A stretch of 64,000 nt of DNA, taken from Phenylobacterium sp. (lineage in GTDB: Bacteria > Pseudomonadota > Alphaproteobacteria > Caulobacterales > Caulobacteraceae). The position numbers and the translations under genes are program-made. Numbering within the stretch: the stretch's first letter is position 1; each line of letters begins with the position of its first letter. Below, piece by piece: positions 11,752-63,231 of this stretch. The stretch lies in assembly GCF_046590535.1 (NCBI RefSeq), contig NZ_JBKJTG010000251.1, positions 10,995 through 74,994 on the forward strand, read 5' to 3'. The notes under the pieces are model-generated. The model had not been told where the DNA came from, did no database searches, and worked only from the letters and a program-made list of their open reading frames with translations.

Positions 11752-11771
11752 GAGGCGCCGCCATCCTGCGA

Positions 11772-18392: not shown

Positions 18393-19013
18393 ATGGATGA
18401 CCCGGACTTGAGCACCGACCTGACTTTCAACGCTGCCCGGGAAGGGCGCCGCAAGCGGCTGGTGTGGGTGCGCGTCCTTCGGCTCGGACTGCCGCTGGCC
18501 GCCGCGACCGTGGTCGCCGGCGTGGCCGGCCAGATCGCCTGGCGCTCGCTGGCGGTCCTGCGCGCTCCGCCGCCGGTGGCCGCCGAGACCGCGGTGCGCA
18601 TGATCAATCCCTCGTTCCGGGGCCAGGGGCGCGACGGCAGCCGCTATGTGGTCACCGCCCGATCCGGCGTCCGGGACGCCGGTGACGCGGCCCGCATCCT
18701 GCTGGACAGCCCGACGGTGTTCATCGGCCGGGCCGGAGAGCCCGACGGCGCGCGCAGCGTCGCTCAGCGCGGCGTGTTCCGCGAGGACGACCTGACCCTG
18801 CGTCTGGAGGGCGACGTACGCCTGGAGCGGGGCGGATCTCGGTTCGTCGCCAAGGTCGCCACCATCAACACGGCCACCGGCCAGATCAGCGGCGAAGGGC
18901 TGAAGGGCGCCGGCGACACGGGCGCCGTGCAGGCCGACAGCTACGCCATCGATGGCGCCGGCGACCGCATGGTCCTGAAGGGCGGCGTCCGCGCCCGGAT
19001 CAGTGGACGCTGA
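18393..19013 (+). CDS. LptC-like protein (N-terminal membrane anchor plus beta-jellyroll)
   Basis: TM helix LRLGLPLAAATVVAGVAG. It is followed by MINPSFRGQGRDGSRYVVTARSG..D....ILLDSP.V.......A..G.F.....L.L.GDV.L, an LptC-type pattern. An alternative TTG start exists at 18384. Confidence 0.55.
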   Translation: MDDPDLSTDLTFNAAREGRRKRLVWVRVLRLGLPLAAATVVAGVAGQIAWRSLAVLRAPPPVAAETAVRMINPSFRGQGRDGSRYVVTARSGVRDAGDAARILLDSPTVFIGRAGEPDGARSVAQRGVFREDDLTLRLEGDVRLERGGSRFVAKVATINTATGQISGEGLKGAGDTGAVQADSYAIDGAGDRMVLKGGVRARISGR

Positions 19014-20166
19014 TCCCTTGCGCGCGGACGCTCAGGCCGCCCGGCGCAAGGTCTGCTTCCTGTTCATCGCCCAGCCGCACCAGGTTTTCCACAGCCTGCC
19101 TATCGCCCTGGCGCTCGCCAGAGGCTGGCCGCAGATCGATGTGGAAGTGGCCGCCACCACCCAGGCCCAGCTGGACCTGATCGACGACCTGACAGTGCGA
19201 ACTGAGGCAGCGCCGCTTAAGCAGCGCCTGCTAGGCCCGGGCTGGCTGCGCGGCTTCCGGCCCAACGGCGCTTCGGTGCCGCCCAAGGCCGCCATGCTGG
19301 CCGCCAACCTCGGGGTGTTGGCCGGCTATGACGCCATCGCCTGTCCCGAGCGGACCACCACCCTGATCCGCCGGCTGGGCCTGAAGCGACCGCTGTTGAT
19401 CTACACCCAGCACGGGGCAGGAGACCGGGGTGGCACCTTCGAGCCGCGTCTGGGGCTGTTCGACCTGGTGATGGCCTCGGGGCCCAAGACCCGGGACAGG
19501 ATCGTGGAGCCCGGCCTGGCCAGACCCGAGAACTGCGTCAGCGTGGGCTATCCGAAGTTCGACATGGTCGAGGCCCTGCCGCCGCCCCGGCTGCCGGCGT
19601 TCGCGCAGGTCCGGCCGGTGGTGCTCTACAATCCGCACTTCGACCCGGCGCTGAGTTCCTGGCCGGGCGAGGGGCTGAAGGTGCTGGAGGCGTTCGCCGC
19701 CGACGACCGCTACAACCTGATCTTCGCCCCGCACGTGCGCCTGTTCGACGCCCACCACCCCGACCGGGCAAAGCTGGCCTGGTTCGCGGACGCCCCCAAC
19801 ATTCACATCGACCTGGGCGGCCCGGCGATGATGGACATGAGCTACACCCGCCTGGCCGACGTGTACCTGGGCGACGTCTCCAGCCAGGTCTACGAATTCC
19901 TCCTCGAGCCCCGCCCCTGCGCCTTCCTCAACACCCACCGCGTCGCCTGGCGCGGTCACGAGGACTACCTCTGCTGGACCTACGGCCCGGTGGTGGAGCA
20001 CGCCGCCCACGTCATCGACTCCATCGACCGGTCCCGCGCCGACCACACGCGCCTGTATCGCGCCCCGCAGGAGGCCGGCTTCGCCGAGACCTTCGACCTG
20101 GAGGGCGCGTCCTCCTCCCAGCGGGCGGCGCAGGCGATCGTTCGCCTGCTGGAGCGGGCGCCATGA
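19003..20166 (+). CDS. GT-B-like protein, possibly a TagF-type CDP-glycerol glycerophosphotransferase
   Basis: The GTG start overlaps the LptC-like stop. The layout has two Rossmann-like halves. The C-terminal ...YLGDVSSQVYEFL... resembles the TagF-family donor-binding region. The functional call is tentative. Confidence 0.45.
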   Translation: MDADPLRADAQAARRKVCFLFIAQPHQVFHSLPIALALARGWPQIDVEVAATTQAQLDLIDDLTVRTEAAPLKQRLLGPGWLRGFRPNGASVPPKAAMLAANLGVLAGYDAIACPERTTTLIRRLGLKRPLLIYTQHGAGDRGGTFEPRLGLFDLVMASGPKTRDRIVEPGLARPENCVSVGYPKFDMVEALPPPRLPAFAQVRPVVLYNPHFDPALSSWPGEGLKVLEAFAADDRYNLIFAPHVRLFDAHHPDRAKLAWFADAPNIHIDLGGPAMMDMSYTRLADVYLGDVSSQVYEFLLEPRPCAFLNTHRVAWRGHEDYLCWTYGPVVEHAAHVIDSIDRSRADHTRLYRAPQEAGFAETFDLEGASSSQRAAQAIVRLLERAP

Positions 20167-21527
20167 CCGCCGCCGCTGAACGCTCCCTGCTCAGCCGGGT
20201 GCTGGCCAACGCCGGCGTGCTCTTGAGCGGCAAGGCCGCCAACGCGGTCCTCAGCCTGGCCTACATCGCCGTCGCCGCCCGGGCCCTGGGGGTGCGCGAG
20301 GTCGGCGTGTTAATCCTGATCAACGCCTTCGCCCAGCTGATCGGCGAGGTGGTCAAGTTCAACGCCTGGCAGACCGTCCTGCACTATGGGGCCGCCCCGG
20401 TGGCCGAAGGCGACCGGCCACGCTTCCAGCAGGTGATGCGCTTCACCCTCTTCCTCGACGCGGTCAGCGGCCTGGTGGGCGTTACCCTCGCGGTGGCCTG
20501 CGCCCTGGCGTTCGGGCCACGGCTCGGCTGGACCCCGGCGGACAGCCCCGCCGCCGCCCTGTACGGCCTGACCATCCTGGTCATGGCGCCCTCCACCGCC
20601 ATCGGCCTGCTGCGCCTTTTTGACCGTTTCGACCTGATCGCCGCCCAGGCGCCGGTGAGCTCCGTCGTGCGGCTGGCGGGCAGCGGCGCGGCGCTTCTTG
20701 CCGGCGCCTCCCTGACGGGATTCCTGGCCGCCTGGGCGCTCGGGACCGTGGTGGCCTTTGTCTACTTGGCCGTGGCCGCCGTCCGCGAGACCCGCCGACG
20801 CGGCCTGCTGGCCGGGTTCCGCTGGCGTGGGCCGATGGTGGCGGGGCTCCCCGGCGCCTGGCGGTTCGCCTGGGCCACCAACCTCGCCAGCAGCCTGGAC
20901 GCCGCCTTCACCCACGCCATCACCCTGATGGTCGGCGCCCTGATGGGGCCTGCCCCCGCCGCCCTGTGGCGGATCGGCCGCCAGGTCGCCGATGCGCTGG
21001 CCAAGCCCGCGCGGCTGCTGATCCCGGCGCTCTATCCGGAACTCGCCCGGTTGCATGTCACCGAGGGCGAAGGAGCTATGCGGCGCCTGGCCCTCCAGGT
21101 CGGGCTGATCGGAGGCGGCGTAGGCGTGCTCCTGCTGGTCATCACCGCCCTGTTCGGTCGGCCCCTCCTGAGCCTGGTGATGGGCGAGGCCTTCGCTGCG
21201 GCGGGGACCGTGATGACCTGGCAGGTGGCGGCCGCGGTGATCGGCATCCTGGCCCTGCCAATGGAGCCGCTGCTGGTCTCCCTGGGCCGCCCTGGCGACG
21301 TGGTGAAGGTGCGCTTGGCGGTGGCCGTGATCCTGCTGGCCGCCCTGCCCGCGGCCGTGAGCGCCTGGGGTCTCACCGGGGCGGGTGCGTCCCTGGTTGC
21401 GGCGATGGCGGCCCTTGCCCTGGGCATGTTCGCCATGTTGCAGAGACGGGCAGGGCGCGCGACGGTTGGCGCGCCACAGGAAAGGGCTTGCGCCGACGAC
21501 CCGGCGCAGGCGAAGGGCGGCAAGTGA
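20163..21527 (+). CDS. Wzx/MOP-superfamily polysaccharide-type flippase
   Basis: About 12 predicted TM helices. The N-terminus (NAGVLLSGKAANAVLSLAYIAVAARALG) is typical of oligosaccharide flippases. ATGA overlap with the upstream gene. Confidence 0.75.
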   Translation: MTAAAERSLLSRVLANAGVLLSGKAANAVLSLAYIAVAARALGVREVGVLILINAFAQLIGEVVKFNAWQTVLHYGAAPVAEGDRPRFQQVMRFTLFLDAVSGLVGVTLAVACALAFGPRLGWTPADSPAAALYGLTILVMAPSTAIGLLRLFDRFDLIAAQAPVSSVVRLAGSGAALLAGASLTGFLAAWALGTVVAFVYLAVAAVRETRRRGLLAGFRWRGPMVAGLPGAWRFAWATNLASSLDAAFTHAITLMVGALMGPAPAALWRIGRQVADALAKPARLLIPALYPELARLHVTEGEGAMRRLALQVGLIGGGVGVLLLVITALFGRPLLSLVMGEAFAAAGTVMTWQVAAAVIGILALPMEPLLVSLGRPGDVVKVRLAVAVILLAALPAAVSAWGLTGAGASLVAAMAALALGMFAMLQRRAGRATVGAPQERACADDPAQAKGGK

Positions 21528-23239
21528 TGATCCTTCCCACCGCAGCGGATCGCGCCGTCCGGCTCGCTGACTTCGCGACCCTCACCGAGGCCCTGGATTT
21601 CGCCGCCACCGGCGAGACCGGCCTCACCCTCCACGCCATGCGCGGCGACGTGGCCGAGGCGCTCTCCTATGGTCGCCTGCGCGAGGACGCCCTGGCCCTG
21701 GCCCCGCGCCTGCTGGCCGCGGGTCTTGAGCCCGGCGAACGGGTCGGCCTGGTGGCCGAGACCGACGGCGACTTCCTGCGCGCCTTCTTCGCCTGCCAGT
21801 ATGCCGGCCTGATCCCCGCGCCTCTGCCGCTGCCCGCCCCGCTGGGCGGACGCGAGGCCTATGTGGCGCAGGTCACCCGGATGCTGGAGGCCGCCGACGC
21901 CGCGGCCGTCGTGGGTCCTGCGGCTATTACCGCCTGGATGGCCGACGCGCCGCCGGCCGCGGTCCGCTTCGTGGGCGCCCTGACCGACCTGCCCCCGGCC
22001 GCGGGGGCGCCCCTTCCTGACATACGTCCGGACGATCCCTGCTACTTGCAGTTCTCCTCGGGCAGCACGCGCTTTCCCACCGGCGTGCTGGTGACCCATC
22101 GGGCCCTGATGGCCAACGCCCAGGCGATCGTGCGCCACGGCCTGCAAGTGCGGCCCGCCGACCGGGCGAGTTCGTGGCTGCCGCTTTATCATGACATGGG
22201 GCTGGTGGGCTTCGTGCTGACCCCGCTGGCCTGCCAGATGTCGGTGGACCTGCTGCCAACCGGCGCCTTCGTCCGCCGCCCCTTGTTGTGGCTGGAGCTG
22301 ATCAGCCGCAACGGCGCGACCATCTCCTACAGCCCGACCTTCGGCTATGAGCTCTGCACCCGGCGCGCCGACCGCGCCGGGCCCGAGGCCCTGGACCTCT
22401 CGCGCTGGCGCATCGCCGGCCTCGGCGGCGACATGATCCGCTCCGGACCCTTGCGCGACTTCGCCCGCCAGTTCGGCCCCGCCGGCTTCTCGGCGGACGC
22501 CTATGTGACCAGCTACGGCATGGCCGAGGCCACCCTGGCGCTGAGCATGGCGCCCCTGGGCCGCGGCCTGGCGGTGGAGACCCTCGACATCGGCAGGCTG
22601 GAACGCGAAAGCCTGGCTGTCACCGGCGCCGCCTCGGATCGCACCCGCGACTTCGCCCGCTGCGGCCCCGCCCTGCCCGGCCACGAGCTGCAGGTGCGCG
22701 GCGACGACGGCCGGCCCCTGGCCGAGCGCGCCGTGGGCCGCATCTTCGCCCGCGGCCCCAGCCTGATGCGCGGCTATTTCCGCCAGCCGGAGGAGACCGG
22801 GCGGGTGCTCTCCGCCGACGGCTGGCTGGACACTGGCGACCTGGGCTTCCTCGACGGCGGCGAGATCGTGCTAACCGGCCGCAGCAAGGACCTGATGATC
22901 GTCAACGGCCGCAACATCTGGCCGCAGGACCTGGAGTGGACCTGCGAGGACGAGTTGCCTGCCGTGCGCAACGGCGACGTGGCCGCCTTCTCCGTACCCG
23001 GGGCTGACGAGGAGCAGGTGGTGGTTCTCGTGCAGGCCCGGGGCCCTGATCTCGCGGTACGCGACGCCCTGCGCGCCGAGGTCGGCCGCGTGCTGCGCCA
23101 GCGGCACAGCGTTGAGGCGGAGGTCAGGCTGGTGGGCCCCCACGCCCTGCCGCAGACCTCGTCGGGCAAGCTCAGCCGCGCGAAGGCGCGCCAGGCCTAT
23201 CTGGCGGGCGCCTTCGATCTGGAGCGCACCCGGGCGTGA
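21527..23239 (+). CDS. fatty acyl-AMP ligase / acyl-ACP synthetase-like adenylating enzyme
   Basis: The ATG overlaps the flippase stop. AMP-binding motifs are YLQFSSGSTRFPTGV, YGMAE, TGDLG, GRSKD and SSGKLSR. Confidence 0.85.
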   Translation: MILPTAADRAVRLADFATLTEALDFAATGETGLTLHAMRGDVAEALSYGRLREDALALAPRLLAAGLEPGERVGLVAETDGDFLRAFFACQYAGLIPAPLPLPAPLGGREAYVAQVTRMLEAADAAAVVGPAAITAWMADAPPAAVRFVGALTDLPPAAGAPLPDIRPDDPCYLQFSSGSTRFPTGVLVTHRALMANAQAIVRHGLQVRPADRASSWLPLYHDMGLVGFVLTPLACQMSVDLLPTGAFVRRPLLWLELISRNGATISYSPTFGYELCTRRADRAGPEALDLSRWRIAGLGGDMIRSGPLRDFARQFGPAGFSADAYVTSYGMAEATLALSMAPLGRGLAVETLDIGRLERESLAVTGAASDRTRDFARCGPALPGHELQVRGDDGRPLAERAVGRIFARGPSLMRGYFRQPEETGRVLSADGWLDTGDLGFLDGGEIVLTGRSKDLMIVNGRNIWPQDLEWTCEDELPAVRNGDVAAFSVPGADEEQVVVLVQARGPDLAVRDALRAEVGRVLRQRHSVEAEVRLVGPHALPQTSSGKLSRAKARQAYLAGAFDLERTRA

Positions 23240-24168
23240 ACCGCGGCCTGGCCGCGGTCACCGGCGCCACGGGGTTCCTGGGCCAGCATGTGGTGCGCGC
23301 CCTGGCCGACGCCGGCTGGCGGGTGCGCATCCTGGCCCGGCGCGATCCTGTAAGCCTGTTCTGGAGCGGCCTGACTCCCGAAGTCATCCCGGGCGACCTC
23401 GGCGACGCGACCGCCCTGGCCCGCCTCTGCACGGGCGCCGACCTGGTGGTCCATGTGGCGGGATTGATTTCCGGCCGCCGTGGCGACCTGCAGCGGGTCA
23501 ATGTCGAGGGGACCCGACGTCTGGCGCAGGCCGTCCTGGGGGCGGCCGTTCCCCGGGTGCTGCACATCTCGAGCCTGGCGGCCCGCGCGCCGCACCTGTC
23601 GGCCTACGCCGCCAGCAAGCGGGCGGGGGAAGACGTGGTGGAGGCCCTGCTGGGCGGGCGGGTGACCCTCGTGCGGCCGCCCGCCGTCTATGGTCCCGGC
23701 GACCGCGAGACGCTGAGGCTGTTCGCTCTTGCGGCCTCAAGTCCCATGTTGCCGGTGCTGGACCCCGCCGCCCGGGTGGCGGTTGTGCACGTCCAAGACG
23801 CGGCGCGGCAGATCGCATGGCTGGTGGATTTCCCGCACGTGGGCCCCTTCTCGCTCAGCGGCGCCCGCCCGGCGGGCTATGAATGGCGCGAGTTGATGCA
23901 GACAGCGGCCACCGCCCTGGACCGGCCCGCGCGGCTCTTGCGCATCCACCCTGTGGCGCTTTACGGCATGGCGTCGCTGGAGGGTATCGCGAATAGCTGG
24001 CGTCAAAGAACGCCCGTGATTACATTCGGCAAGGTCAGGGAACTGACATATTTGGATTGGGGGATCCGGTCGGCCGAGCGCGCCCCAGGCGCGCCGGCGC
24101 CCGAGTTCGACCTGTTGTCGGGGTTCCGGCAGACGATCGGCTGGTATCGATCGCAGGGTTGGCTCTAG
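23236..24168 (+). CDS. NAD(P)-dependent epimerase/dehydratase-family reductase (CerR-like ceramide reductase candidate)
   Basis: The GTG overlaps the upstream TGA (GTGA). Rossmann motif VTGATGFLGQHV. Catalytic YAASK (YxxxK). Confidence 0.8.
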   Translation: MNRGLAAVTGATGFLGQHVVRALADAGWRVRILARRDPVSLFWSGLTPEVIPGDLGDATALARLCTGADLVVHVAGLISGRRGDLQRVNVEGTRRLAQAVLGAAVPRVLHISSLAARAPHLSAYAASKRAGEDVVEALLGGRVTLVRPPAVYGPGDRETLRLFALAASSPMLPVLDPAARVAVVHVQDAARQIAWLVDFPHVGPFSLSGARPAGYEWRELMQTAATALDRPARLLRIHPVALYGMASLEGIANSWRQRTPVITFGKVRELTYLDWGIRSAERAPGAPAPEFDLLSGFRQTIGWYRSQGWL

Positions 24169-24256
24169 CGCATCCGGCCCGGAGTCTCCTGCGTATAGGC
24201 CTGGGCGCTTGCAAGCGCTCAGCAGGAAAGTCGAGGGGCCGTTGGGGGTAGATCAG

Positions 24257-24508
24257 ATGGAGTTGGTGACCGACCTTACGGTCCGGCAGATCGGGCGGAC
24301 GGCCAGCGTCGTCATGCAACGCAACGTCGAAGTAACCCCGGAATCGGACATTGGCCGTGACCTGGGCGTGGATTCACTGACCTTGATGAACATCGTCATG
24401 GAGCTCGAGGACGTGTTCGAGCTGTCCATTCCACTCGATCGCCTGGCGGACGTGGAGACCGTCGGCGACCTGGCGGGACTGATCAACGAATTGCGGGCGA
24501 GGGCGTAA
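24257..24508 (+). CDS. acyl carrier protein
   Basis: 83 aa, acidic, with the phosphopantetheine site LGVDSLTLM. It ends 2 nt before the spt ATG. Confidence 0.85.
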   Translation: MELVTDLTVRQIGRTASVVMQRNVEVTPESDIGRDLGVDSLTLMNIVMELEDVFELSIPLDRLADVETVGDLAGLINELRARA

Positions 24509-24510
24509 GA

Positions 24511-25728
24511 ATGGGGCTTCTCGACAAGCACCTGGGCTATCGGGCCCCGCTGGACCTCATCCGCAGCGTCGGCGCGGACCCGTCCAACGTTCGGTTCGAC
24601 GCCGTCCTGTCGCCCACTGAGGGCATGCTGGACGGCCGCAAGGTCATCTTGCTGGGCACCAACAATTACCTGGGCCTGACCTTCGACCCGGCCTGTATCG
24701 AGGCCTCGGCCGCCGCGGTGCGCAAGTGGGGCACCGGCACCACCGGTTCGCGGTTCGCCAACGGCACCTTCGCCGGCCACCTGGCGCTGGAAGAGGCGCT
24801 GGCCAAATTCTACGGCCGCAAGCATGCCATGGTGTTCACCACCGGCTACCAAGCGAACCTGGGCGTGATGTCCGGCCTCGTGGGCCGCGGCGACCACCTG
24901 ATTCTCGACGCAGACAGCCACGCCAGCATTTACGACGGCGCCCGGCTCTCACAGTCCGAAGTGATCCGCTTCCGCCACAACGACCCGGAAGACCTCTACA
25001 AGCGCCTGAAGCGCCTGGGCGACCGGCCGGGCGGTCGGCTGATCGTCGTGGAAGGCATCTATTCCATGATGGGCGACGTGGCGCCGCTGAAGGAGATCGT
25101 CGCGGTCAAGCGCGAGATGGGCGCCTATCTGCTCGTCGATGAGGCCCACTCCATGGGCGTCCTGGGCGAGAAGGGCCGCGGCCTGGCCGAGGCCGCCGGC
25201 GTCGAGGATGGCGTCGATTTCATTGTCGGCACCTTCTCCAAGAGCCTCGGCAGCGTCGGCGGATTCGTGGTCTCCGACGAAGACGACTTCGACCTGCTGC
25301 GCATCGTCAGCCGGCCTTACATGTTCACCGCTTCCCTGCCCCCCGCCGTGGTCGCCTCGACGCTGACGGCCCTGACCCGCCTGGAGGAGGACTCCGACCT
25401 TCGCCTCAGGCTTGACGAGAATGCCCGCCACCTGTTCGAGGGCCTGCGCGCCCTGGGTTTCGCCATGGGACCGCAGGCCAGCCCGATCGCGGCCGTGGTG
25501 ATGCCCGACCAGGCCACCGCCGTGGGCATGTGGAACGCCCTGATGGCCAACGGCGTCTACCTGAACCTGGCGGTGCCGCCGGCGACGCCGGAGAACCGCT
25601 CGCTGCTGCGCTCCAGCGTCAGCGCCGCGCACTCCCGCGAACAGCTCGACGAGGTACTCCGTGTGTTCGGGCGGCTCGGCCAGGAATTCGGCCTCCTGCC
25701 GAAGCGCGCGCGCCAAGCCTCAGCCTAG
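24511..25728 (+). CDS. spt: serine palmitoyltransferase (alpha-oxoamine synthase family)
   Basis: GTNNYLGL, DEAHSMG and the PLP-lysine motif TFSKSLGSVGG. Adjacent genes are an ACP, a ligase and a reductase rather than biotin genes. Confidence 0.85.
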   Translation: MGLLDKHLGYRAPLDLIRSVGADPSNVRFDAVLSPTEGMLDGRKVILLGTNNYLGLTFDPACIEASAAAVRKWGTGTTGSRFANGTFAGHLALEEALAKFYGRKHAMVFTTGYQANLGVMSGLVGRGDHLILDADSHASIYDGARLSQSEVIRFRHNDPEDLYKRLKRLGDRPGGRLIVVEGIYSMMGDVAPLKEIVAVKREMGAYLLVDEAHSMGVLGEKGRGLAEAAGVEDGVDFIVGTFSKSLGSVGGFVVSDEDDFDLLRIVSRPYMFTASLPPAVVASTLTALTRLEEDSDLRLRLDENARHLFEGLRALGFAMGPQASPIAAVVMPDQATAVGMWNALMANGVYLNLAVPPATPENRSLLRSSVSAAHSREQLDEVLRVFGRLGQEFGLLPKRARQASA

Positions 25729-25770
25729 AGCCTATCCCGTCCAAATGGACCCATTTGAATGGGATAAAAT

Positions 25771-25839
25771 GGCTCCAAATCAAAAGTTTAGAGCATCTTT
25801 CGTCCGAGAACCGCGTCACACTTCTCGGAAGATGCTCTA
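25771..25839 (-). repeat. dispersed hairpin element, copy A (TAGAGC-stem-loop-GCTCTA-AACTTTTGA-N3-TGGAGCC)
   Basis: On the minus strand it reads TAGAGCATCTTCCGAGAA...TTCTCGGACGAAAGATGCTCTAAACTTTTGATTTGGAGCC. The TAG of the arm is the stop codon of the 25837..26745 gene. It sits between convergent genes and a related copy lies at 52428-52498. Confidence 0.6.
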
Positions 25840-28780: not shown

Positions 28781-28858
28781 GATCGCTCGCCCCTGTAAAC
28801 GCTTATCCGCTGTCTTACGCCGCTCCGGCGCGGACTGGCCACAAGCTACGGACCACCC

Positions 28859-29761
28859 TTGCCTTTGTTTCGCCTGGCCCACCTCTCTGACCCGCACCTG
28901 CCGTCACCCCTGACCCTGGGACCGGCCGGCGAGCTGGTCTCCAAGCGGACGCTCAGCCGGCTGGCCTGGCGACGCAAGCACCGGCAACACGATCCGGCGG
29001 TCCTGGGGCAGATCAGCGCCGACATCACCGCCTACGCCCCCGACCACATCGCGCTCACCGGCGACCTGACCAACTTCTCCACCCAGGCCGAATTCGCCGC
29101 CGCCCGCACATGGCTGGAGTCGCTAGGCCCCGCAGACCGAGTGACCGTCAGCCCCGGCAACCACGACGCCCTGACTGCGGACGCGCAGGCCGACCGGGTC
29201 GCGGCGTTCGGGCCCTGGTTCGGCGATGGTGGCGAGGCGCACTTTCCCAGGGTTCGCCGGCGCGGCCCCGTCGCGCTGGTCAACCTCTGCTCGGCGGTCC
29301 CCACGCCGCCGCTCTTGGCCAGCGGCCGGCTGGGCGAGGCGCAGCTCGAACGACTTTCGCAGGCGCTGGACGACCTGGGCCGCGAAGGCCTGTTCCGCGT
29401 CGTGTTGCTGCACCATCCGGCGGGCGCCGGCGTGGTGTCGCGGCGCAAGGCGCTGGCGGACGGGCCCGAGTTTCGGGAGGTGTTGCGGCGTCATGGGGCT
29501 GAGCTGGTGCTGCACGGCCACGCCCACGAGGCGGTGTTCGGCGTGGTGGCGGGTCCACACGGGCCGATCCCGGTGCTGGGCGTCCCCTCCGCCTCGGCGC
29601 CTTCAGGAACGCAACACGCCGCCGCCCGCTGGCACGCCATCGAGATCGAGCCGGGTGAGGGCCTGCGGGTGATCGCCCGCGGTCTGGAAGCCCGGTCCGG
29701 CGAGGTCGGCGAGCTGGGCCGGTACGCCCTGCCCGGCCTCAGCGCAGGTATCGCAGCCTGA
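28859..29761 (+). CDS. metallophosphoesterase
   Basis: Motifs HLSDPH, TGDLTN, GNHD, HHP and GHAH occur in canonical order. TTG start. Confidence 0.8.
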   Translation: MPLFRLAHLSDPHLPSPLTLGPAGELVSKRTLSRLAWRRKHRQHDPAVLGQISADITAYAPDHIALTGDLTNFSTQAEFAAARTWLESLGPADRVTVSPGNHDALTADAQADRVAAFGPWFGDGGEAHFPRVRRRGPVALVNLCSAVPTPPLLASGRLGEAQLERLSQALDDLGREGLFRVVLLHHPAGAGVVSRRKALADGPEFREVLRRHGAELVLHGHAHEAVFGVVAGPHGPIPVLGVPSASAPSGTQHAAARWHAIEIEPGEGLRVIARGLEARSGEVGELGRYALPGLSAGIAA

Positions 29762-30212
29762 TGCGGATGGTGTTGTCCCCCGGTCCGACCGGAAAGCGCA
29801 CGGCCCGCAGGGGCGGCAGGGCGGCGGGCGTCGGCGGATCGTTGGAGAACCCGAACCCTTCCGCCGGCAGGCCCACCACCGTGCGGTCGAAATCGCTGTC
29901 GGCGTCGGCGTCATGATAGACCGCCACCGCATAGTATCCGGGCCGCGCCAGGTTGAAGCAGGCGGACGTGACCGGCGCCTGGGCCTTGGGCCGCACCCGC
30001 GCCAGCTTGCCGCCCGGCGCCAGGAAGCGCGTCGCCATGTCGGGATAGACGGTCATGGCCACCTGGCCGCGGGCCGCGCGCACGCCGCTGACCTGGACCG
30101 TGAGGGTCGAGGCGCCCGGCTGGCCCTCGCAATCGGCGGCCACGGCTGCGGGCGCCCACAGGCCAAGGGCGGCGGCCAGGGGGATCAAGGCCGATGTCCT
30201 TGCTGATTTCAC
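29739..30212 (-). CDS. DUF2141-like secreted protein
   Basis: Signal peptide. Then VAMTVYPD...F........., YAVAVYHDADADSDFDRTVVGLPAEGFGFSND, typical of DUF2141. Confidence 0.7.
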   Translation of the reverse strand: MKSARTSALIPLAAALGLWAPAAVAADCEGQPGASTLTVQVSGVRAARGQVAMTVYPDMATRFLAPGGKLARVRPKAQAPVTSACFNLARPGYYAVAVYHDADADSDFDRTVVGLPAEGFGFSNDPPTPAALPPLRAVRFPVGPGDNTIRIRLRYLR

Positions 30213-30273
30213 GGGGATGGACGAGCCTCTCGATGTATCAACCGCTGCACGTTACGGCAGGCAAGACGCCCAG

Positions 30274-30711
30274 ATGACCAACGCCACCGCCGTCAGCTTC
30301 GGCTTCCCCGAAACCTTGGTGGGCGAGACCAGGTCCTGGCTGGTGCTCGCGCGTCCCAAGCAGCCGACATTTGGCGCGCTCGTGCTAATTTGCAAGGAGG
30401 AGGCCCAGGCCTTCTCTGACCTCAGCGCCACAGCCTTCGCCGATCTTGGCCTCGCCGTGAGCGCCGTCGAGACCCTGCTTCGCAAGGTCGTGGGCTACCA
30501 GCAGATCAACTACCTGATGCTGATGATGGTCGACCGCGATGTCCATTTCCACGTGATCCCGCGCTACCAGGGCGAGCGCGTCCACGAGGGCATGAGCTTC
30601 CCCGACGCCGGCTGGCCGGGCCAGCCCGACCTGGGCGCCGCGATGGACCTGGGTCCCGAGGGCGCCGCGCGCCTGGCGGCGTTCCTGCGGCAGCAATGGC
30701 CCGCAGCTTGA
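30274..30711 (+). CDS. HIT-family (histidine triad-like) nucleotide hydrolase/transferase
   Basis: DRDVHFHVIPRY is a degenerate HxHxH motif, and the size fits the family. An alternative ATG lies at 30217. Confidence 0.65.
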   Translation: MTNATAVSFGFPETLVGETRSWLVLARPKQPTFGALVLICKEEAQAFSDLSATAFADLGLAVSAVETLLRKVVGYQQINYLMLMMVDRDVHFHVIPRYQGERVHEGMSFPDAGWPGQPDLGAAMDLGPEGAARLAAFLRQQWPAA

Positions 30712-31934
30712 GCCGAAAGCCGAGATCCGAGGGGGCGGCGCCGCATCTGGCCCTGATCGACCGCTACGTGCTGCGCATGACGGCCTGGCCTATGTTGGGC
30801 TGCCTGGGGGTCACCGTCACCTCCCTGCTCTTGGAGCGCACCTTGCGGCTGCTGGACCTCCTGTCGCAGTCCAATAGCCGGTTCGGATCGGTCCTGGAGC
30901 TGACCGCCAACCTGCTGCCCCACTACCTGGGCCTGGCCCTGCCGGTGGCCTTCTTCGTGGCCCTGTTCATCGTCATCACCAAGCTGGATGACGGCTCGGA
31001 GATCGAGGCCTTCCTGGCCAGTGGCGTGCCGCTCACCCGGCTGGCGGCGCCCTATGTGGCCCTGGGTCTGGTGCTGATGTCGATCAGCCTGGTGGTGTTC
31101 GGCTACCTGCAGCCCTACAGCCGCTACGCCTATCGCGCGGTGCTGCACGCCGCCGTCAACGCCGGCTGGGACGGTCGCCTGCACGGCGGGGCCTTCGTCA
31201 GCGACGGCGACAACATCATGACCGCCGACAGCGCCAGCCTCGAGGGCCGACGTCTGCAGCACGTGTTCATCCGCCGCGCCACGCCCGGCGGCGGCGAGGA
31301 GGTTCTGACCGCCCGCTCGGCGCAGCTCTCCCCCCAGCCGGATGGCAAGACCGTCACCCTGGTCCTGCAGAACGGGGCCCGGCTCAGCGAGAACCGCTCG
31401 GGCGACTTCGACAGCCTGCGCTTCGACACCTTCACCATGCAGACCAATGTGGCGGACGCCGCGGCGCTGCTGCGGTCACGGGGCGGCGACGAGCGCGAGC
31501 TGACGCTTACGGAACTGGCCATCCGCGCCGGATCGCCCATGCCGGTGATCCCGCGCGAGACCCTGCTGGCCGAGCTCTATGGCCGGCTGGCGCGGTCCGT
31601 CGTCCTGCCGTTCCTGCCGCTGATCGCCCTGCCGCTGGGACTGGCCGCCAAGCGCCGCCGCAGGACCGCGGGGCTGCTGCTGGCCGGCGCGCTCCTCCTG
31701 GGTTTCCAGCACGGGCTGCAGTTCGGCCAGGGTCTGGCCGAGACCGGCCGGGTGTCCCCGGAGATCGGCGTCGGCGCCCCCTTCTTCCTGTTCACCGGCT
31801 TCTGCCTGTGGATGTTCGCCGGCAGCCGCCGGCGACCGGGTGAGACGCCCATCGGGCGCTTCGTGCAGGCCCTGGGGGATTCCATAGAACGGCTCCAGGC
31901 GTTGCTCCGCCCGCGCAAGGCGGCAGCCTCATGA
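30696..31934 (+). CDS. LptF/LptG-family (YjgP/YjgQ) permease, LptF-like
   Basis: IDRYVLRM start region, six TM segments and a large periplasmic beta-jellyroll insert between TM3 and TM4. Confidence 0.8.
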   Translation: MARSLSRKPRSEGAAPHLALIDRYVLRMTAWPMLGCLGVTVTSLLLERTLRLLDLLSQSNSRFGSVLELTANLLPHYLGLALPVAFFVALFIVITKLDDGSEIEAFLASGVPLTRLAAPYVALGLVLMSISLVVFGYLQPYSRYAYRAVLHAAVNAGWDGRLHGGAFVSDGDNIMTADSASLEGRRLQHVFIRRATPGGGEEVLTARSAQLSPQPDGKTVTLVLQNGARLSENRSGDFDSLRFDTFTMQTNVADAAALLRSRGGDERELTLTELAIRAGSPMPVIPRETLLAELYGRLARSVVLPFLPLIALPLGLAAKRRRRTAGLLLAGALLLGFQHGLQFGQGLAETGRVSPEIGVGAPFFLFTGFCLWMFAGSRRRPGETPIGRFVQALGDSIERLQALLRPRKAAAS

Positions 31935-32992
31935 GGCTTGGCGGCTACGTCCTTCGGCTGGTGGCCCTGCGCATCCTGGGCGCCGCCGCCATCCTGCTGG
32001 CCGTCCTGCAGATCCTCGACCTCCTGGAAGTCACTCCGGAGATCGTCGAGCGCGGCCTGGGCCTGGCCGGGATCGTGCAGTACGCGGCCCTGCGCCTGCC
32101 GCGGCTGATCGACCAGGCGGCGCCCCTGGCGGTTCTGGCCGGGGGCATCTTCGCCTTCATGAAACTGGCTGGCGACAGCGAGATCGTCGCCATGCGCGCC
32201 TCCGGCGTCTCCGCCTACAAGCTGGTGGCCATGGCCCTGCCGGCGGCTTTGGCGGTGGTGGTGATCGACTTCGCCGCGGTCGAGCTCGTGGCGCCCAGGA
32301 CCGATCCGGCGCTGCAGTCCTGGTGGCGCGCCACCGCCCCGCCAGCGCCCGCCGCGGACCCCAAGCCGAAGGCCTTCCGGGTGGGCGGAGACGTGGTCTC
32401 GGCCGCCACCACCGACCTGACCGGCCGCAGTCTGAAGGACGTGCGGATCTACCGGCGCGACGCAGGCGGCCGCCTCACCGAGCGGATCGACGCGGCCAAC
32501 GCCACCTGGGCGCCCGGCGGCTGGCGGCTGGCCAACCCGCGCTTCGTCAGGTTCAACGCCGCCGGCGCCTCCAGCGGCCAGGCGGCCACCATCACCTGGA
32601 CGGCAGCCTTCGAGCCGGCCGACGTGCAGTCCCTGTTCTTCGGGGAGCAGACCATCTCCGCGGCCTCCGCGGGGCGCGCCCTGGCCGGCGGCGGAGCGCA
32701 GCGGCCGGACAGCTACTACGCCACGCGGCTGCAGCGCTCCATTGCCAGCCCCCTGGGCGGCCTGATCATGCTGCTCCTGGCCGCGCCCATAGCCCTGGCC
32801 AGCTTCCGCTCCAGCCAGGGGGCGATGTTCGTCACCGCCAGCCTGGGCGCGGGCCTGATGTTCCTGGTGGCGGATGGCCTGCTGGCGGCCCTGGGCGAGA
32901 GCGGCGCGGTGTCGCCCCTGCTGGCCGCCTGGACCGCCCCCCTGGTGTTCGCGGCGCTGGGAGCCACGGCGCTGATCCAGTTGGAAGGCTGA
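31931..32992 (+). CDS. LptF/LptG-family permease, LptG-like
   Basis: ATGA overlap with the preceding gene. Architecture is the same as the LptF-like gene. GDSEIVAMRASGVS motif. Confidence 0.8.
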   Translation: MRLGGYVLRLVALRILGAAAILLAVLQILDLLEVTPEIVERGLGLAGIVQYAALRLPRLIDQAAPLAVLAGGIFAFMKLAGDSEIVAMRASGVSAYKLVAMALPAALAVVVIDFAAVELVAPRTDPALQSWWRATAPPAPAADPKPKAFRVGGDVVSAATTDLTGRSLKDVRIYRRDAGGRLTERIDAANATWAPGGWRLANPRFVRFNAAGASSGQAATITWTAAFEPADVQSLFFGEQTISAASAGRALAGGGAQRPDSYYATRLQRSIASPLGGLIMLLLAAPIALASFRSSQGAMFVTASLGAGLMFLVADGLLAALGESGAVSPLLAAWTAPLVFAALGATALIQLEG

Positions 32993-34125
32993 TGGGCGGC
33001 CTCGCGCTCAGCCCGGTGCGCACCAAGGCCGAGCTCGAACGGTTCATCCGCTTGCCCATGCGCCTGAACGCCCACGACCCGGCCTGGGTCGCGCCGCTCC
33101 TGATGGAACGCCGAGAGGCGCTCTCGGCCAAATCCAACCCGTTCTTCGCCCACGCCGAGGTGGAGATGTGGCTGGCCACCCGCGACGGCGTCGACGTGGG
33201 CCGGATCAGCGCCCAGATCGACCGGCTCGCCCCCCAGGACCGGCAACGTCCCGCCGGCGCCTTCGGCCTGATCGCGGCGGAGGATGACTCGGCCACTTTC
33301 GGCGCCCTGTTCGAGGCGGCGGAAGCCTGGCTGAAGTCTCGTGGGATGGCCGCCGCCATGGGGCCCCTGAACCTGTCGGTGAACGAGGAGGTGGGGCTGC
33401 TGGTGGACGGCTTCCAGACGCCGCCCATGCTGATGATGGGCCACGACCAGCCCTATGTCGCCGGCCGCATTGAGGAACAGGGCTACGTCAAGGCCAAGGA
33501 CATCTACGCCTACATCGGCAGCCTGCACCACGGCCTGGCGCGGCTGTTCGACCGGGCCCGCCGCGACCCCATGCCGGGGGTGGTGCTCCGCCCGCTGGAC
33601 ATGTCGCGATATGCGGCCGAGGTCGCCACTCTCACCGAGATCCTCAATGACGCCTGGCGTGAAAACTGGGGGTTTACGCCCACCACTGAGGCGGAGACCC
33701 GCCACCTGGCCCAGGCGCTCAGGCCAGTGATCGACCCGGGGCTAATCTGGTTCGCCGAGATCGACGGCGAGCCGGCCGGCGTGCTGGTGGGCCTGCCCAA
33801 CGTCAACGAGGCCATCGCGGACCTGGACGGACGGCTGTTCCCGTTCGGCTGGGCCAAGCTTCTCTGGCGGCTGAAGGTGCGCGGCGTGAAGAGCGCCCGG
33901 GTGCCGCTGATGGGCGTGAAGCGCGCCTACGCCGGCACGCTCCGGGGCCAGCGCCTGCCGTTCCTGATGATGGGCGCTGTGATCACGCAGGCCCAGGCGC
34001 GGGGCTATGAACGCTACGAGTACTCCTGGATCCTGGAGGAAAACCTGGCCATGCGACGGATCTGCGAGGCGGCCCACGCGCGCATCTACAAGACCTACCG
34101 GATCTACCAGAAGGCCCTGGCTTGA
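32992..34125 (+). CDS. GNAT-like N-acyltransferase (bacterial ceramide synthase bCerS candidate)
   Basis: The ATG overlaps the lptG-like stop (TGATG). About 377 aa. The N-terminal LERFIRLPMRLNAHDPAWVAPLL region and the acyltransferase-like C-half fit the family. It is co-localised with spt. The assignment rests on context plus family resemblance. Confidence 0.6.
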   Translation: MGGLALSPVRTKAELERFIRLPMRLNAHDPAWVAPLLMERREALSAKSNPFFAHAEVEMWLATRDGVDVGRISAQIDRLAPQDRQRPAGAFGLIAAEDDSATFGALFEAAEAWLKSRGMAAAMGPLNLSVNEEVGLLVDGFQTPPMLMMGHDQPYVAGRIEEQGYVKAKDIYAYIGSLHHGLARLFDRARRDPMPGVVLRPLDMSRYAAEVATLTEILNDAWRENWGFTPTTEAETRHLAQALRPVIDPGLIWFAEIDGEPAGVLVGLPNVNEAIADLDGRLFPFGWAKLLWRLKVRGVKSARVPLMGVKRAYAGTLRGQRLPFLMMGAVITQAQARGYERYEYSWILEENLAMRRICEAAHARIYKTYRIYQKALA

Positions 34126-34904
34126 ACGGCTTCACCGCCCTGGTGCTGGCCGGGTCACGGGTCGGCGCCGATCCCGTGGCGGCCTATGCGGGCGTCACCC
34201 ACAAGGGGCTCATCGTCCTGGATGGCCAGACCCTGTTGGCCCGCGTGCTCCACGCCCTGGACGCCGCCGGCGCGGCGCGCATCTGCGTGTCCTCCAACGA
34301 CCCCGCCATCGACACCGAACTGGCCGCCATCAGCCTCAACGCCAGTGTCGAGAGGATCGAGGCGGGGGCCAGCCCAAGCCTTAGCGTCGCGCAGGCGCTG
34401 GAACACCTGGGCGCGCCGCTGCTCGTGACCACCTGCGACCACGCGCTCCTGCGCCCGGAGTGGATCCGGCAGTTCCGCAAGGACGCGCCGGCCGAGGCCG
34501 ACATCGCGGTCCTGCTCGCCCCTGAAGACGCCGTGCGCGCCGCCGCGCCGCAGACTGAACGGACCTATCTGGCCTTCCGCGATGGGCGCTATTCGGGGTG
34601 CAACCTCTTCCTGCTGCGGACGTCCCGGGCGCGGGCGGCGGTGGATCTCTGGCGCCGCGTCGAGGCGCACCGCAAGCAGCCTTGGCGGATCGCCCTGATG
34701 CTGGGTCCGGCGATGCTGTTCGGCTTCATCCTGCGGCGGCTGACCCTCGACGGGGCTGTTCGCCGGCTGGGCCGCCGTGCAGGGGTGGCGGCCACGGCCG
34801 TCCTGACGCCCTTCGGCCTGGCGGCGGTGGACGTGGACAAGCCCGCCGATCTCGATCTGGTGCGCGCCCTGGTGGCCGCCGGCGATCCGGCTCAGCGCAC
34901 GTAG
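34122..34904 (+). CDS. MobA-like NTP-transferase domain protein
   Basis: The TTG overlaps the upstream TGA. N-terminal ALVLAGSR...KGLIVLDGQTLL nucleotide-binding pattern. Confidence 0.65.
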   Translation: MNGFTALVLAGSRVGADPVAAYAGVTHKGLIVLDGQTLLARVLHALDAAGAARICVSSNDPAIDTELAAISLNASVERIEAGASPSLSVAQALEHLGAPLLVTTCDHALLRPEWIRQFRKDAPAEADIAVLLAPEDAVRAAAPQTERTYLAFRDGRYSGCNLFLLRTSRARAAVDLWRRVEAHRKQPWRIALMLGPAMLFGFILRRLTLDGAVRRLGRRAGVAATAVLTPFGLAAVDVDKPADLDLVRALVAAGDPAQRT

Positions 34905-35608
34905 CTGGCGCCGTTGATGTCGAGCACCGCGCCGGTCATCGACGCCGGCGCCTCCAGCGCCAGGTAGGCGGCGGCGCTGGCCACCTCCGCCGGGTCCGCC
35001 ACCCGGCCCAGCGGGATGTCCGCCAGGAGCTTGTCGCCGCCGCGGCTGGCCACATAGTCGTCCGCCATGCCGGTCATCACGAAGCCCGGGCAGATGGCGA
35101 AGCACAGGATCCCCTGGCCGGCGTAGCCGCGGGCGATCGACTTGCTCATGCCAATCAGGCCGGCCTTCGACGCTGCATAGTGCCAGTGCTGGGGCGAGTC
35201 GCCGCGATAGGCTGCGCGGCTGGCGATATTGACGATCCGCCCGCCGCCGGTGTCCTGGAAGTGCAGCACCGCGCGCCGGCTAAGGTCGGCGGCGGCCTGG
35301 AGATTGATCTGCAGGGTGTTCGCCCAGCCGGCCCGCCAGGCTTCGGGCTCAGCATCCACCGGCAGGGCCTCGAACACGCCGGCGTTGTTCACCAGCACGT
35401 CGATCCGGCCGCCCAGCCGCGCCAGCGCCCGGTCCCACAGGCGGTCGGCCTCGCCGGGCCGGGAAAGGTCGGCGCCCAGAACGCCCCCCCCGTCCGTGCG
35501 GCCGTGGCCGATCACCCGCGCGCCGCGCTCGGCCAGGGTGGCGACGATGGCGGCGCCGATCCCCCGCGTGGAGCCGGTGACGAGGATGTGTCGCGGATCG
35601 GACGTCAC
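34892..35608 (-). CDS. SDR-family oxidoreductase
   Basis: TGSTRGIGAAI (TGxxxGIG), NNAG and YAASKAG (YxxxK). Confidence 0.9.
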   Translation of the reverse strand: MTSDPRHILVTGSTRGIGAAIVATLAERGARVIGHGRTDGGGVLGADLSRPGEADRLWDRALARLGGRIDVLVNNAGVFEALPVDAEPEAWRAGWANTLQINLQAAADLSRRAVLHFQDTGGGRIVNIASRAAYRGDSPQHWHYAASKAGLIGMSKSIARGYAGQGILCFAICPGFVMTGMADDYVASRGGDKLLADIPLGRVADPAEVASAAAYLALEAPASMTGAVLDINGASYVR

Positions 35609-35620
35609 GGAGTTGAGGCC

Positions 35621-36376
35621 CTAGCCGGCCATCGCCCGGGCCGCCCAGCGCTCGGTGAGCGCCAGGTTGCGCGGCAGGTCGGCGGGGAAGTCCATCTCCG
35701 CCCATCCCAGGCCCTCGATGGAGGCGACGCGCACGCAGCCGCTTTCCCGGGCGATCTGGTCGATGACGCTGAGGTACCAGCGCTTCAGGCCCTCGGGACG
35801 GCGCAGCGCGGCTTCCACGTTCGCCCGGAACCGGTCGGCCCCGGGGGCGGAGAACCTCAGGAAGCCGATCGATTCGCCGTTGAACTCGGCGATGGTCTTG
35901 CCGATCGCCAGCAGCACGTCACCGTCGGTCAGCACCCGCATGTCGTCGTCGTCGTAATTGGCCTTGCGGTCGATGGTGACGGTGATCTCGGCGGCGGGGG
36001 CGGCCAGCAGCCGCTCGGCCACGTCGGGCTCGAACAGGGTGTCGCCGTTGAGCAGCAGCACCTCGCCACGCAGTTCCTCGCGCACCAGCCAGCAGGTCGC
36101 GAGGTTGTCGGTGAGCGCATAGAACGGATTGAACAGGGTCCGCACGGTCAGGCCGGGCAGGTCGAGGCCGGCGACTTCAGCGTCCACCGCGTCGGCGCCG
36201 AAGCCGGTGACCACCACCGCCTCGCGCACCCCCACGGCGTGCAGGTTGGCCAGCTGCCAATGCAAGACGGTGCGACCGGAGAGCCCGATCAGGCACTTGG
36301 GCTTGTCGTCGGTCAGCGGCGACAGCCTGCGCCCCTGGCCGGCGCTCAGGATGACGACCTTGGAAACCTTACTCAC
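35621..36376 (-). CDS. sugar/alcohol-phosphate cytidylyl- or nucleotidyl-transferase (LicC/PntC-like)
   Basis: VILSAGQGRRLSPLTDDKPKCL (GxGxRL...KP). The size and C-terminal region resemble phosphocholine/phosphonate cytidylyltransferases. The start is GTG at 36376 or ATG at 36409. Confidence 0.7.
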   Translation of the reverse strand: MSKVSKVVILSAGQGRRLSPLTDDKPKCLIGLSGRTVLHWQLANLHAVGVREAVVVTGFGADAVDAEVAGLDLPGLTVRTLFNPFYALTDNLATCWLVREELRGEVLLLNGDTLFEPDVAERLLAAPAAEITVTIDRKANYDDDDMRVLTDGDVLLAIGKTIAEFNGESIGFLRFSAPGADRFRANVEAALRRPEGLKRWYLSVIDQIARESGCVRVASIEGLGWAEMDFPADLPRNLALTERWAARAMAG

Positions 36377-36668
36377 GGAAAGACCGCCCCCATCGCGACG
36401 CCGTTGCAACGCGCCATTCTACCAGCCACCAGCCGGTTCCGACAGGCGTGGCGGGCAGCCTTTGCGCTGGTGTTCTCGCCAATCGTCGGCCCGCGGCGCA
36501 ATTCCTCGAGCCGGTGCTTGCCCGAGGCAGCTTGGATGGGCCAGATGCTTCTCGTTCGGGGTCGGGTTCGGGTAGGCGTATGACAGGCATGACGAGATGG
36601 CTGCGGAGGGCGGACGCCCTGGCCGCCGTGCTCATCCGGGCCGCCGCGCCGGGAAGCAGTTTTCGCAG

Positions 36669-39657: not shown

Positions 39658-40056
39658 ATGCCTATGAGCACGCGCCAACTTACCGTCCTCGTCGCCGACG
39701 ACGATCCCCTTCTGCGAGCCATCCTGGAGCACAAGCTGAGCGCGGCCGGCTACGCCGTGCACAGCGTCGAGGACGGGCAGGCGGCGCTGGACGCCGCGGC
39801 GCGGCTGCGGCCGGACCTCCTCGTACTCGATGGCATGATGCCGATCATGGACGGCTTCGAGGTCCTGCGGCGGCTGAAGGCCGACGGTGACCTGTGCAAG
39901 ATCATCGTGGTGATGCTGACGGCCCTCAAACGTCAGGAAGACGTCCTGGGGGCGCTCAAGCTGGGGGCGGATGACTACCTCGCCAAGCCGTTCAACCCCG
40001 ATGAACTCGTCGCGCGGCTCGACCGACTCTCAGCGCCGTTGCGGATGGGCCCGTGA
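39658..40056 (+). CDS. single-domain response regulator (REC only)
   Basis: VLVADDD...LLVLDGMMPIMDG...T...AKPF. The stop overlaps the next start (GTGA). Confidence 0.9.
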   Translation: MPMSTRQLTVLVADDDPLLRAILEHKLSAAGYAVHSVEDGQAALDAAARLRPDLLVLDGMMPIMDGFEVLRRLKADGDLCKIIVVMLTALKRQEDVLGALKLGADDYLAKPFNPDELVARLDRLSAPLRMGP

Positions 40057-41168: not shown

Positions 41169-41170
41169 CG

Positions 41171-44259: not shown

Positions 44260-44349
44260 GACGGCTCCCAGCTACCCAGACCTACCGATAGCACCCCCGC
44301 ACGAAAGCCGTCACGGACCCCGGTCCGAACGGCTGCAACAGGCGCACCC

Positions 44350-63218: not shown

Positions 63219-63231
63219 GGCCCGCGTGGTG

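Follow-up and report, generated by a model that had tools for sequence, protein, structure and literature searches.

A run of 19 genes in a 64-kb stretch of Phenylobacterium sp. DNA (contig NZ_JBKJTG010000251.1; we refer to the whole stretch as the window) raises the question of whether genes for ceramide synthesis, head-group attachment, nucleotide activation and lipid transport, which lie side by side at positions 18393–36409, serve a single pathway. The first-pass annotation of this DNA had proposed that they do, as a system to make, decorate and export an anionic sphingolipid. Our comparisons support this functional reading: the locus is a new copy of an already described Caulobacter-type system, the orthologue of CC_1168–CC_1152 (CCNA_01226–01210) of Caulobacter crescentus, where genetic and some biochemical evidence has established the function. 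We consider it very probable that the window cluster likewise encodes the synthesis of ceramide, its conversion to ceramide phosphoglycerate (CPG) and CPG2, and export of the product.

The Caulobacter locus has been studied repeatedly (Olea-Ozuna 2021/2024; Stankeviciute 2022; Zik 2022; Dhakephalkar 2023/2025; Uchendu 2026 preprint). The cpgABC genes, CPG and CPG2 were defined by Zik et al. (PMC9393093), and CC_1168–CC_1152 was published in 2024 as a 17-gene "biosynthesis and transport" sphingolipid cluster, in which LptC2, LptF2, LptG2 and a flippase are assigned to transport, CPG requires CC_1161 and CC_1160, and CC_1159, CC_1158, CC_1153 and CC_1152 are either required for CPG2 or take part in its formation (PMC11324152). 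The same paper gives domain calls for several members (TagF-like IPR007554, Tam41-like IPR015222, HIT, calcineurin-like, and MobA/CofC-like) and reports conservation in Hyphomonas, Sphingomonas, Zymomonas, Nitrosomonas, Azotobacter and Pseudomonas luteola. CpgD was characterized biochemically in 2025 as a phosphoglycerate cytidylyltransferase that makes cytidine diphosphate (CDP)-glycerate (PMC12275187). Deletion of lptF2, lptG2 or lptC2 is tolerated only in an spt or cpgB mutant background, where CPG2 is not made, and in pull-downs LptF2 and LptG2 are recovered together, along with the single LptB (bioRxiv 10.64898/2026.04.12.717747). In view of these three reports, the transport and nucleotide-activation genes can no longer be described, as they were previously, as lacking an assigned role. 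It is also known from the literature that the anionic sphingolipid CPG2 allows Caulobacter to live without lipid A and is its target for polymyxin, and that its Lpt-like exporter ties the sphingolipid to lipopolysaccharide (LPS) transport.

Gene order and conserved linkage

The window is about 70% GC, and because such a composition crowds raw lists of open reading frames (ORFs) with spurious frames, coding frames were picked by third-position GC (GC3), together with windowed GC3 along the ORFs. This procedure returns exactly the limits given previously, 18393 and 36409, and places between them 19 consecutive genes (g3–g21), most of whose junctions are overlaps of 1–16 bp or gaps of 2–40 bp. 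They fall into a plus-strand unit, g3–g9 (18393–25728; overlaps of 1–11 bp or gaps of 2–40 bp), a minus-strand unit, g12-g11-g10 (about 28780 down to 25837), a lone plus-strand gene (g13), a lone minus-strand gene (g14), a second plus-strand unit, g15–g19 (30274–34904), and a minus-strand pair, g21-g20 (36409 down to 34892); about 28780 and 30274 are the probable true starts of the CDP-alcohol transferase and HIT genes, respectively. The first two units converge on the spt/cpgC intergenic region (25729–25836), which is AT-richer and contains hairpins, with inverted repeats visible and a terminator-like site at 25794–25772 on the minus strand in a promoter and terminator scan; the hairpins are likely to be the terminators of the spt and cpg operons. 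A sigma-70 promoter scan gave one match, as chance predicts, and is uninformative; no 9-mers common to the four promoter-bearing intergenic regions were found, and Rfam and tRNA scans detected no RNA genes inside the cluster.

A genome scan with the window serine palmitoyltransferase (Spt) identified 80 loci in Phenylobacterium, Caulobacter, and metagenome-assembled genomes (MAGs) of Caulobacteraceae, the best full-length Spt match being 85% identical and one partial match 92%. The window proteins were mapped by tblastn onto a locus (L056) of C. vibrioides, the species that includes C. crescentus, and onto six others. All 17 of the L056 genes are collinear with the window, with identical order and strands, and the earlier comparison of the core enzymes and cpgABC with those of Caulobacter is upheld. 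Conservation was counted over the 51 Caulobacter and Phenylobacterium loci with full 10-kb flanks, except where totals of 54, 53 or 32 are given below. The genes from the Wzx-like gene through cpgB are present in 50–51 of them, LptF2 and LptG2 in 49, bCerS and HIT in 47, cpgA and CC_1153 in 46, and the metallophosphoesterase in 45; cpgD was seen in 29, a count limited by the flank length. Given the order and strands shared with L056 and the 51 loci, the arrangement is not one of chance. The genes on either side of the window cluster (nitronate monooxygenase and thiolase upstream, and an M14 peptidase downstream) are not conserved in related loci, and this supports the boundaries at 18393 and 36409.

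The upstream end of the cluster varies among relatives. Directly upstream LptC2 and TagF-like genes are present in 23/51 and 21/51 loci respectively, all of them of the Caulobacter type, and in most Phenylobacterium loci (L003, L004, L038, and others) neither lptC2 nor the TagF-like gene stands beside the Wzx-like gene, and L050 carries an LptC2-like gene (20615–21163) at the far end of the cluster. It has been reported that lptC2 seems restricted to Caulobacter (bioRxiv 10.64898/2026.04.12.717747), and the window, L050 and L065 suggest that its distribution is somewhat wider. The closest relative found, a locus in Phenylobacterium MAG H1-B2 (L044, 1–10984; Spt 92%, LptF2 85%), carries an insertion of about 5.4 kb between spt and cpgC and no metallophosphoesterase gene, so that rearrangement of the cluster extends to close relatives.

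Two of the cluster genes are extra to the 17 of the C. crescentus cluster, and they differ in their linkage. The first encodes a secreted DUF2141 protein (g14; 29739–30212, minus strand) that matches PF09912 with 80.6 bits (cut-off 24.4; E 1e-22) and has a signal-peptide-like N-terminus. No DUF2141 gene was found at the matching position in L056, the representative C. vibrioides locus; C. crescentus itself was outside the comparison. In 41 of 54 informative loci one lies between the metallophosphoesterase and HIT genes, on the same strand, and we conclude from these positions that it is a frequent accessory member of the cluster in further species of Caulobacter and Phenylobacterium. The only literature link that turned up for DUF2141 is to the carotenoid gene crtG, near which it is encoded in Sphingomonadales; the protein might be a periplasmic lipid-handling factor. 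The second is a FabG-like short-chain dehydrogenase/reductase (SDR) gene (g20; 34892–35608, minus strand; adh_short_C2, E 4e-40), and in none of 32 informative related loci is there an SDR gene between CC_1153 and cpgD. Its orthologues, which are 77–81% identical, are widespread in Phenylobacterium among unrelated neighbours in the three neighbourhoods checked, for example a set of cupin, spermine-synthase-like and P-type ATPase genes, or Ku/LigD. On both grounds we read the SDR as probably a lineage-specific passenger inserted between CC_1153 and cpgD; a role as a head-group or sphingoid-base reductase was considered and dropped, as the three neighbourhoods lend it no support. Since the SDR is without conserved linkage, the pathway set numbers 17–18 genes, and the proposal that all 19 belong to one pathway stands in that reduced form.

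The same counts bear on whether only the ceramide core and cpgABC constitute a pathway, the Lpt-like, Wzx-like, HIT, metallophosphoesterase, DUF2141 and nucleotidyltransferase genes being unrelated envelope neighbours. The SDR clearly looks like such a neighbour, DUF2141 is missing from L056, and mutants of CC_1157 (HIT) show no cofitness with the cluster (PMC11324152). However, conserved linkage, absent for the SDR, extends to LptF2, LptG2, HIT, the metallophosphoesterase, bCerS and CC_1153 in 45–51 of the 51 loci; CC_1152, CC_1153 and CC_1158 affect CPG2, and the HIT gene of S. wittichii lies between cpgA and cpgD (Swit_1306–1309) (PMC11324152); and the requirement for lptF2, lptG2 and lptC2 is limited to cells that make CPG2 (bioRxiv 10.64898/2026.04.12.717747). 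We therefore regard a chance assembly of neighbours as very improbable, and treat the cluster below as a single system.

Ceramide and head-group enzymes

The gene labels were examined by Pfam and NCBIfam hidden Markov model scans, motif checks, PDB profile searches, two structure predictions, and synteny, and nearly all of them hold, the weaker assignments being the LptC-like, Wzx-like, GNAT-like and TagF-like proteins. The ceramide core begins with an acyl-acyl carrier protein (ACP) synthetase of the fatty acyl-AMP ligase type (aasR, CC_1165; 21527–23239, plus strand), which scores 846 bits against NF006624 (cut-off 600) and has orthologues in 50/51 loci. It is followed on the same strand by cerR (CC_1164; 23236–24168), an epimerase-family SDR orthologous to the ceramide reductase (Pfam Epimerase, E 7e-25) and syntenic in 51/51 loci, by acpR (CC_1163; 24209–24508), a dedicated ACP (PP-binding, E 9e-12) with its DSL motif at residue 55, and by spt (CC_1162; 24511–25728). 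The ceramide synthase orthologue (bcerS/cerS, CC_1154; 32992–34125, plus strand) is a GNAT-like protein with weak GNAT matches (E 2e-3), and is 63% identical and syntenic to that of L056.

Spt belongs to a family in which confusion with BioF or Kbl is a concern, but the evidence places it with the serine palmitoyltransferases: it scores 655 bits against the NF047599 equivalog (cut-off 500), compared with 343 bits for bioF and 328 bits for Kbl among the other NCBIfam models, and its best PDB match is the S. wittichii enzyme (2x8u, 462 bits), with Kbl and BioF at about 240 bits. The FSKS context of the pyridoxal phosphate lysine is also conserved. The GC content of spt is 3–5 points below that of its neighbours in all seven loci checked, and horizontal transfer as an explanation of the low GC was rejected because the dip is common to all seven. 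We note separately that the window Spt is 85% identical to the Spt of L003-type Phenylobacterium loci, whereas those of L003 and L038 are only 77% identical to each other, and that for almost all the genes around spt it is L038, not the window, that lies closer to L003; spt could have been exchanged by recombination within the cluster, for which its low GC, being common to all the loci, is no evidence.

Of the head-group genes, cpgB (CC_1160; 26742–27704, minus strand) encodes an orthologue of the ceramide kinase, of the DAGK type (DAGK_cat, E 7e-10), syntenic in 50/51 loci. The cpgA gene (CC_1159; 27647–28780, minus strand, with the longest ORF extending to 28897) encodes a membrane protein of the CDP-alcohol phosphatidyltransferase family (PF01066, E 7.5e-11), 65% identical to its L056 counterpart, in which the motif D-x2-DG-x2-AR...G-x3-D-x3-D is complete at residue 265 (DTVDGKLAR...G...D...D). 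The phosphoglycerate cytidylyltransferase orthologue, cpgD (CC_1152; 35621–36409, minus strand), has matches to NTP_transf_3 and NTP_transferase, and is 68% identical and syntenic to that of L056. The calcineurin-like metallophosphoesterase (CC_1158 orthologue; 28859–29761, plus strand; Metallophos, E 5.7e-11) is encoded between cpgA and lptF2 in 52/54 loci. The CC_1153 orthologue (34122–34904, plus strand) is a MobA/CofC-like nucleotidyltransferase (NTP_transf_3, E 1.4e-15) with weak MobA and CofC matches, the one to CofC (2-phospho-L-lactate guanylyltransferase) at E 4e-4. CofC substrates resemble phosphoglycerate, and the CC_1153 orthologue may be a second phosphoglycerate-activating enzyme besides CpgD.

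The remaining head-group gene, cpgC (CC_1161; g10, 25837–26745, minus strand), is recognized by its predicted structure. Its product has no Pfam, NCBIfam or PDB sequence match, and PF09139 in particular gives no Pfam match in the window protein or in 11 orthologues. The AlphaFold2 (AF2) model (predicted local distance difference test, pLDDT, 89; predicted template-modelling score, pTM, 0.87) adopts a Tam41-like nucleotidyltransferase fold, and its top five Foldseek matches in the PDB are all Tam41 CDP-diacylglycerol (CDP-DAG) synthases, including 6ig4, 6ig2 and 7ecd (E 1e-8 to 8e-6; TM 0.52–0.57; probability 1.0); the Tam41-like InterPro entry IPR015222 is the one given for CC_1161 (PMC11324152). 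Tam41 enzymes convert phosphatidic acid to CDP-DAG, and the modelled fold suggests by analogy that CpgC cytidylylates ceramide-1-phosphate (C1P), with CDP-ceramide as an intermediate. The term "CDP-ceramide" is absent from every sphingolipid paper that our literature search turned up, and the CpgC step has been called "yet unidentified" (PMC12275187).

Transport genes and the nature of the product

The first gene of the cluster, lptC2 (CC_1168/CCNA_01226 orthologue; 18393–19013, plus strand), encodes an LptC-like protein that matches Pfam LptC with 21.9 bits (cut-off 21), is predicted to be anchored in the inner membrane by an N-terminal hydrophobic helix (residues 23–41), and is 39% identical and syntenic to that of L056. 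The adjacent permease genes lptF2 (CC_1156; 30696–31934) and lptG2 (CC_1155; 31931–32992), both on the plus strand, have strong matches to PF03739 (E 2.6e-63 and 1.3e-70), and their products fall below the equivalog cut-offs for canonical LptF (TIGR04407, 184 bits, cut-off 230) and LptG (TIGR04408, 226.7 bits, cut-off 240), as is expected of paralogues. There is no ABC ATPase among the approximately 55 GC3-supported ORFs that were scanned with Pfam (of about 63 listed in the window), and this fits the model in which LptB is shared. A putative flippase of the Wzx/MOP type (CC_1166 orthologue; 20163–21527, plus strand), with about 10–12 hydrophobic segments, is present in 50/51 loci, and has a Polysacc_synt match in Pfam that lies below the cut-off (24.8 bits, E 1.8e-5).

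Two further proteins are conserved to different degrees. The HIT-family protein (CC_1157 orthologue; 30274–30711, plus strand, with the longest ORF starting at 30055) is encoded in 53/53 loci; its single-sequence Pfam match of 19.1 bits is below the cut-off, its profile matches 2oik (E 4e-8) and Fhit (E 4e-4 to 1e-3), and two residues of its D-x-H-x-H-x-x motif (DVHFHVIPR), H110 and H112, which correspond to triad histidines two and three, show no variation. The TagF-like protein (CC_1167 orthologue; 19003–20166, plus strand) is tentatively assigned from profile and model as a GT-B fold, glycerophosphotransferase-like protein. It has no Pfam match at E ≤ 0.01; it reaches 14 bits against PF04464, short of the cut-off of 22.1 and over its C-terminal part only, and its only PDB profile matches are TarL and the TagF-like Cps3D (E 0.03); "glycerophosphotransferase" is the name that NCBI gives to its homologues. 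The AF2 model (pLDDT 86.9) has a GT-B fold and matches TagF (3l7j, 3l7l and 3l7m) with E 1e-10 and TM 0.63, but UDP-GlcNAc 2-epimerases match it equally well or better, and the fold search separates neither.

This inventory raises the possibility that the true end product is larger than, or different from, CPG2, such as a ceramide decorated with poly(phosphoglycerate) or sugar, of which CPG and CPG2 would be the extractable intermediates; the TagF-like GT-B protein would build it from CDP-glycerate or a nucleotide sugar, the Wzx-like protein would flip it, and LptF2G2C2 would take over. There are more nucleotide-handling enzymes in the cluster than two phosphoglycerate additions seem to need (three nucleotidyltransferases, the HIT protein, the metallophosphoesterase and the CDP-alcohol transferase, along with the TagF-like GT-B protein), Wzx/MOP flippases typically handle lipid-linked oligomers, CC_1167 mutants are cofit with those of CC_1168, CC_1158 and CC_1159 (PMC11324152), and CPG2 itself is very polar and poorly extracted (Zik et al., PMC9393093). 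Against this, there is no published report of such a lipid, Olea-Ozuna et al. held CC_1167 to be probably unrelated to the pathway (PMC11324152), most Phenylobacterium loci do not have the TagF-like and LptC2 genes next to the cluster, and the structural match does not part TagF from UDP-GlcNAc 2-epimerase-like GT-B proteins; we think a larger end product quite unlikely. We also find unlikely, though worth stating, a linked proposal in which CpgC is a C1P cytidylyltransferase that makes CDP-ceramide and the accessory genes build and export a product larger than CPG2. The accessory set concerned could comprise the TagF-like GT-B protein, the Wzx-like protein, the HIT protein, the MobA/CofC-like nucleotidyltransferase and the secreted DUF2141 protein, and the product could be, for example, a teichoic-acid-like poly(phosphoglycerate) ceramide missed by standard lipid extraction.

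The preferred interpretation, a cluster that makes and exports CPG and CPG2, has points against it that should be set beside the evidence above. Its function in the source organism rests on orthology, at 39–72% identity to the Caulobacter proteins; the LptC2 family call is marginal, the Wzx-like and TagF-like proteins are below Pfam cut-offs, CpgC is assigned from its model with no sequence-level family match, and several of the sub-threshold assignments rest on synteny. The flipping role of the Wzx-like protein rests on inference, binding of LptC2 to LptF2G2 could not be shown in Caulobacter (bioRxiv 10.64898/2026.04.12.717747), and our inventory of lpt genes covers the 64-kb window, with the canonical lptFG and lptB genes out of view.

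Elsewhere in the window, a terC RNA motif (Rfam RF03067; 59.8 bits, gathering score 39.9) is located at 5308–5362 on the minus strand, upstream of a small minus-strand ORF (5050–5235). A group of copper-resistance genes at 10819–14803, a short way upstream of the cluster, consists of a copD-like gene on the plus strand, and copB and the multicopper oxidase gene copA on the minus strand. At 39658–46389, four genes in a row, for a response regulator, a TPR protein, a HEAT-repeat protein and a family-2 glycosyltransferase, precede those for an Hpt protein, a second receiver and a GAF-PAS histidine kinase, and from its gene content the region may be a regulated exopolysaccharide module. An HNH endonuclease gene is present at 50502–51062 (minus strand), and the GC content at 50001–52000 is 0.65, compared with about 0.70 elsewhere. 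A second FabG-like SDR gene (242 aa) is directly upstream of, and overlaps, a FolB (dihydroneopterin aldolase) gene at 62490–63576.

Predicted pathway and comparison with known systems

By orthology with steps shown in Caulobacter, the acyl-ACP synthetase would load the dedicated ACP, Spt would join serine with the acyl-ACP, bCerS would N-acylate the product of Spt, and CerR would reduce it to ceramide. CpgB, as established biochemically in Caulobacter, is expected to phosphorylate ceramide to C1P, and CpgC, on the basis of Caulobacter genetics, to convert C1P to CPG, with the CDP-ceramide route proposed from the fold. CpgD would supply CDP-glycerate, as it does biochemically in Caulobacter, and CpgA, a CDP-alcohol phosphotransferase implicated genetically, is thought to use it as the donor of a second phosphoglycerate to give CPG2; the genetics further indicate that the MobA-like nucleotidyltransferase would be required for CPG2 and that the metallophosphoesterase would contribute. 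The Wzx-like putative flippase presumably flips the lipid, and LptF2G2 and LptC2, with the housekeeping LptB ATPase, would then extract it from the inner membrane for transfer to the outer membrane, as the genetics and pull-downs of the 2026 preprint indicate. The HIT, TagF-like and DUF2141 proteins would be conserved cluster members outside the assigned steps, and the SDR a passenger. The window makes three modest additions: a Phenylobacterium-like genome that carries the Caulobacter-type arrangement in full, with lptC2; a gene for a secreted DUF2141 protein that is a frequent cluster member yet missing from C. vibrioides L056; and a structural argument, drawn from the model, for CpgC as a Tam41-like lipid-phosphate cytidylyltransferase, which offers a testable mechanism for the head-group step.

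Compared with CC_1168–CC_1152, the window has the same layout from lptC2 to spt, the same divergent cpgA-B-C, the lone metallophosphoesterase gene, the series HIT-lptF2-lptG2-cerS-CC_1153, and cpgD on the opposite strand, and neither locus contains lptB; it differs in the sequences of its proteins (39–72% identical), in its flanking genes, and in the extra DUF2141 and SDR genes. The predicted CpgC fold matches Tam41/Mmp37 (6ig4, 7ecd) over about 280 of 302 residues, and both would act on a lipid phosphate, which for CpgC is C1P according to Caulobacter genetics; the differences are the 10–12% identity, the lack of a Pfam match in CpgC, and its predicted ceramide-1-phosphate substrate. With the TagD/TagF system of wall teichoic acid the cluster shares the use of a CDP-activated three-carbon donor, CDP-glycerate in place of CDP-glycerol, and the presence of a TagF-like GT-B protein, whose role here is putative, but CpgD is of the COG1213 type and is not a homologue of TagD (PMC12275187), and the acceptor is a sphingolipid. 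Finally, the window resembles the LptB2FGC LPS extractor in having two adjacent permeases of the LptF/LptG family and an anchored LptC-like protein; it departs from it in that the permeases are below the equivalog cut-offs and lie in a sphingolipid locus that has no dedicated ATPase, and in that Caulobacter genetics point to an anionic sphingolipid as the substrate of the LptF2G2 system.

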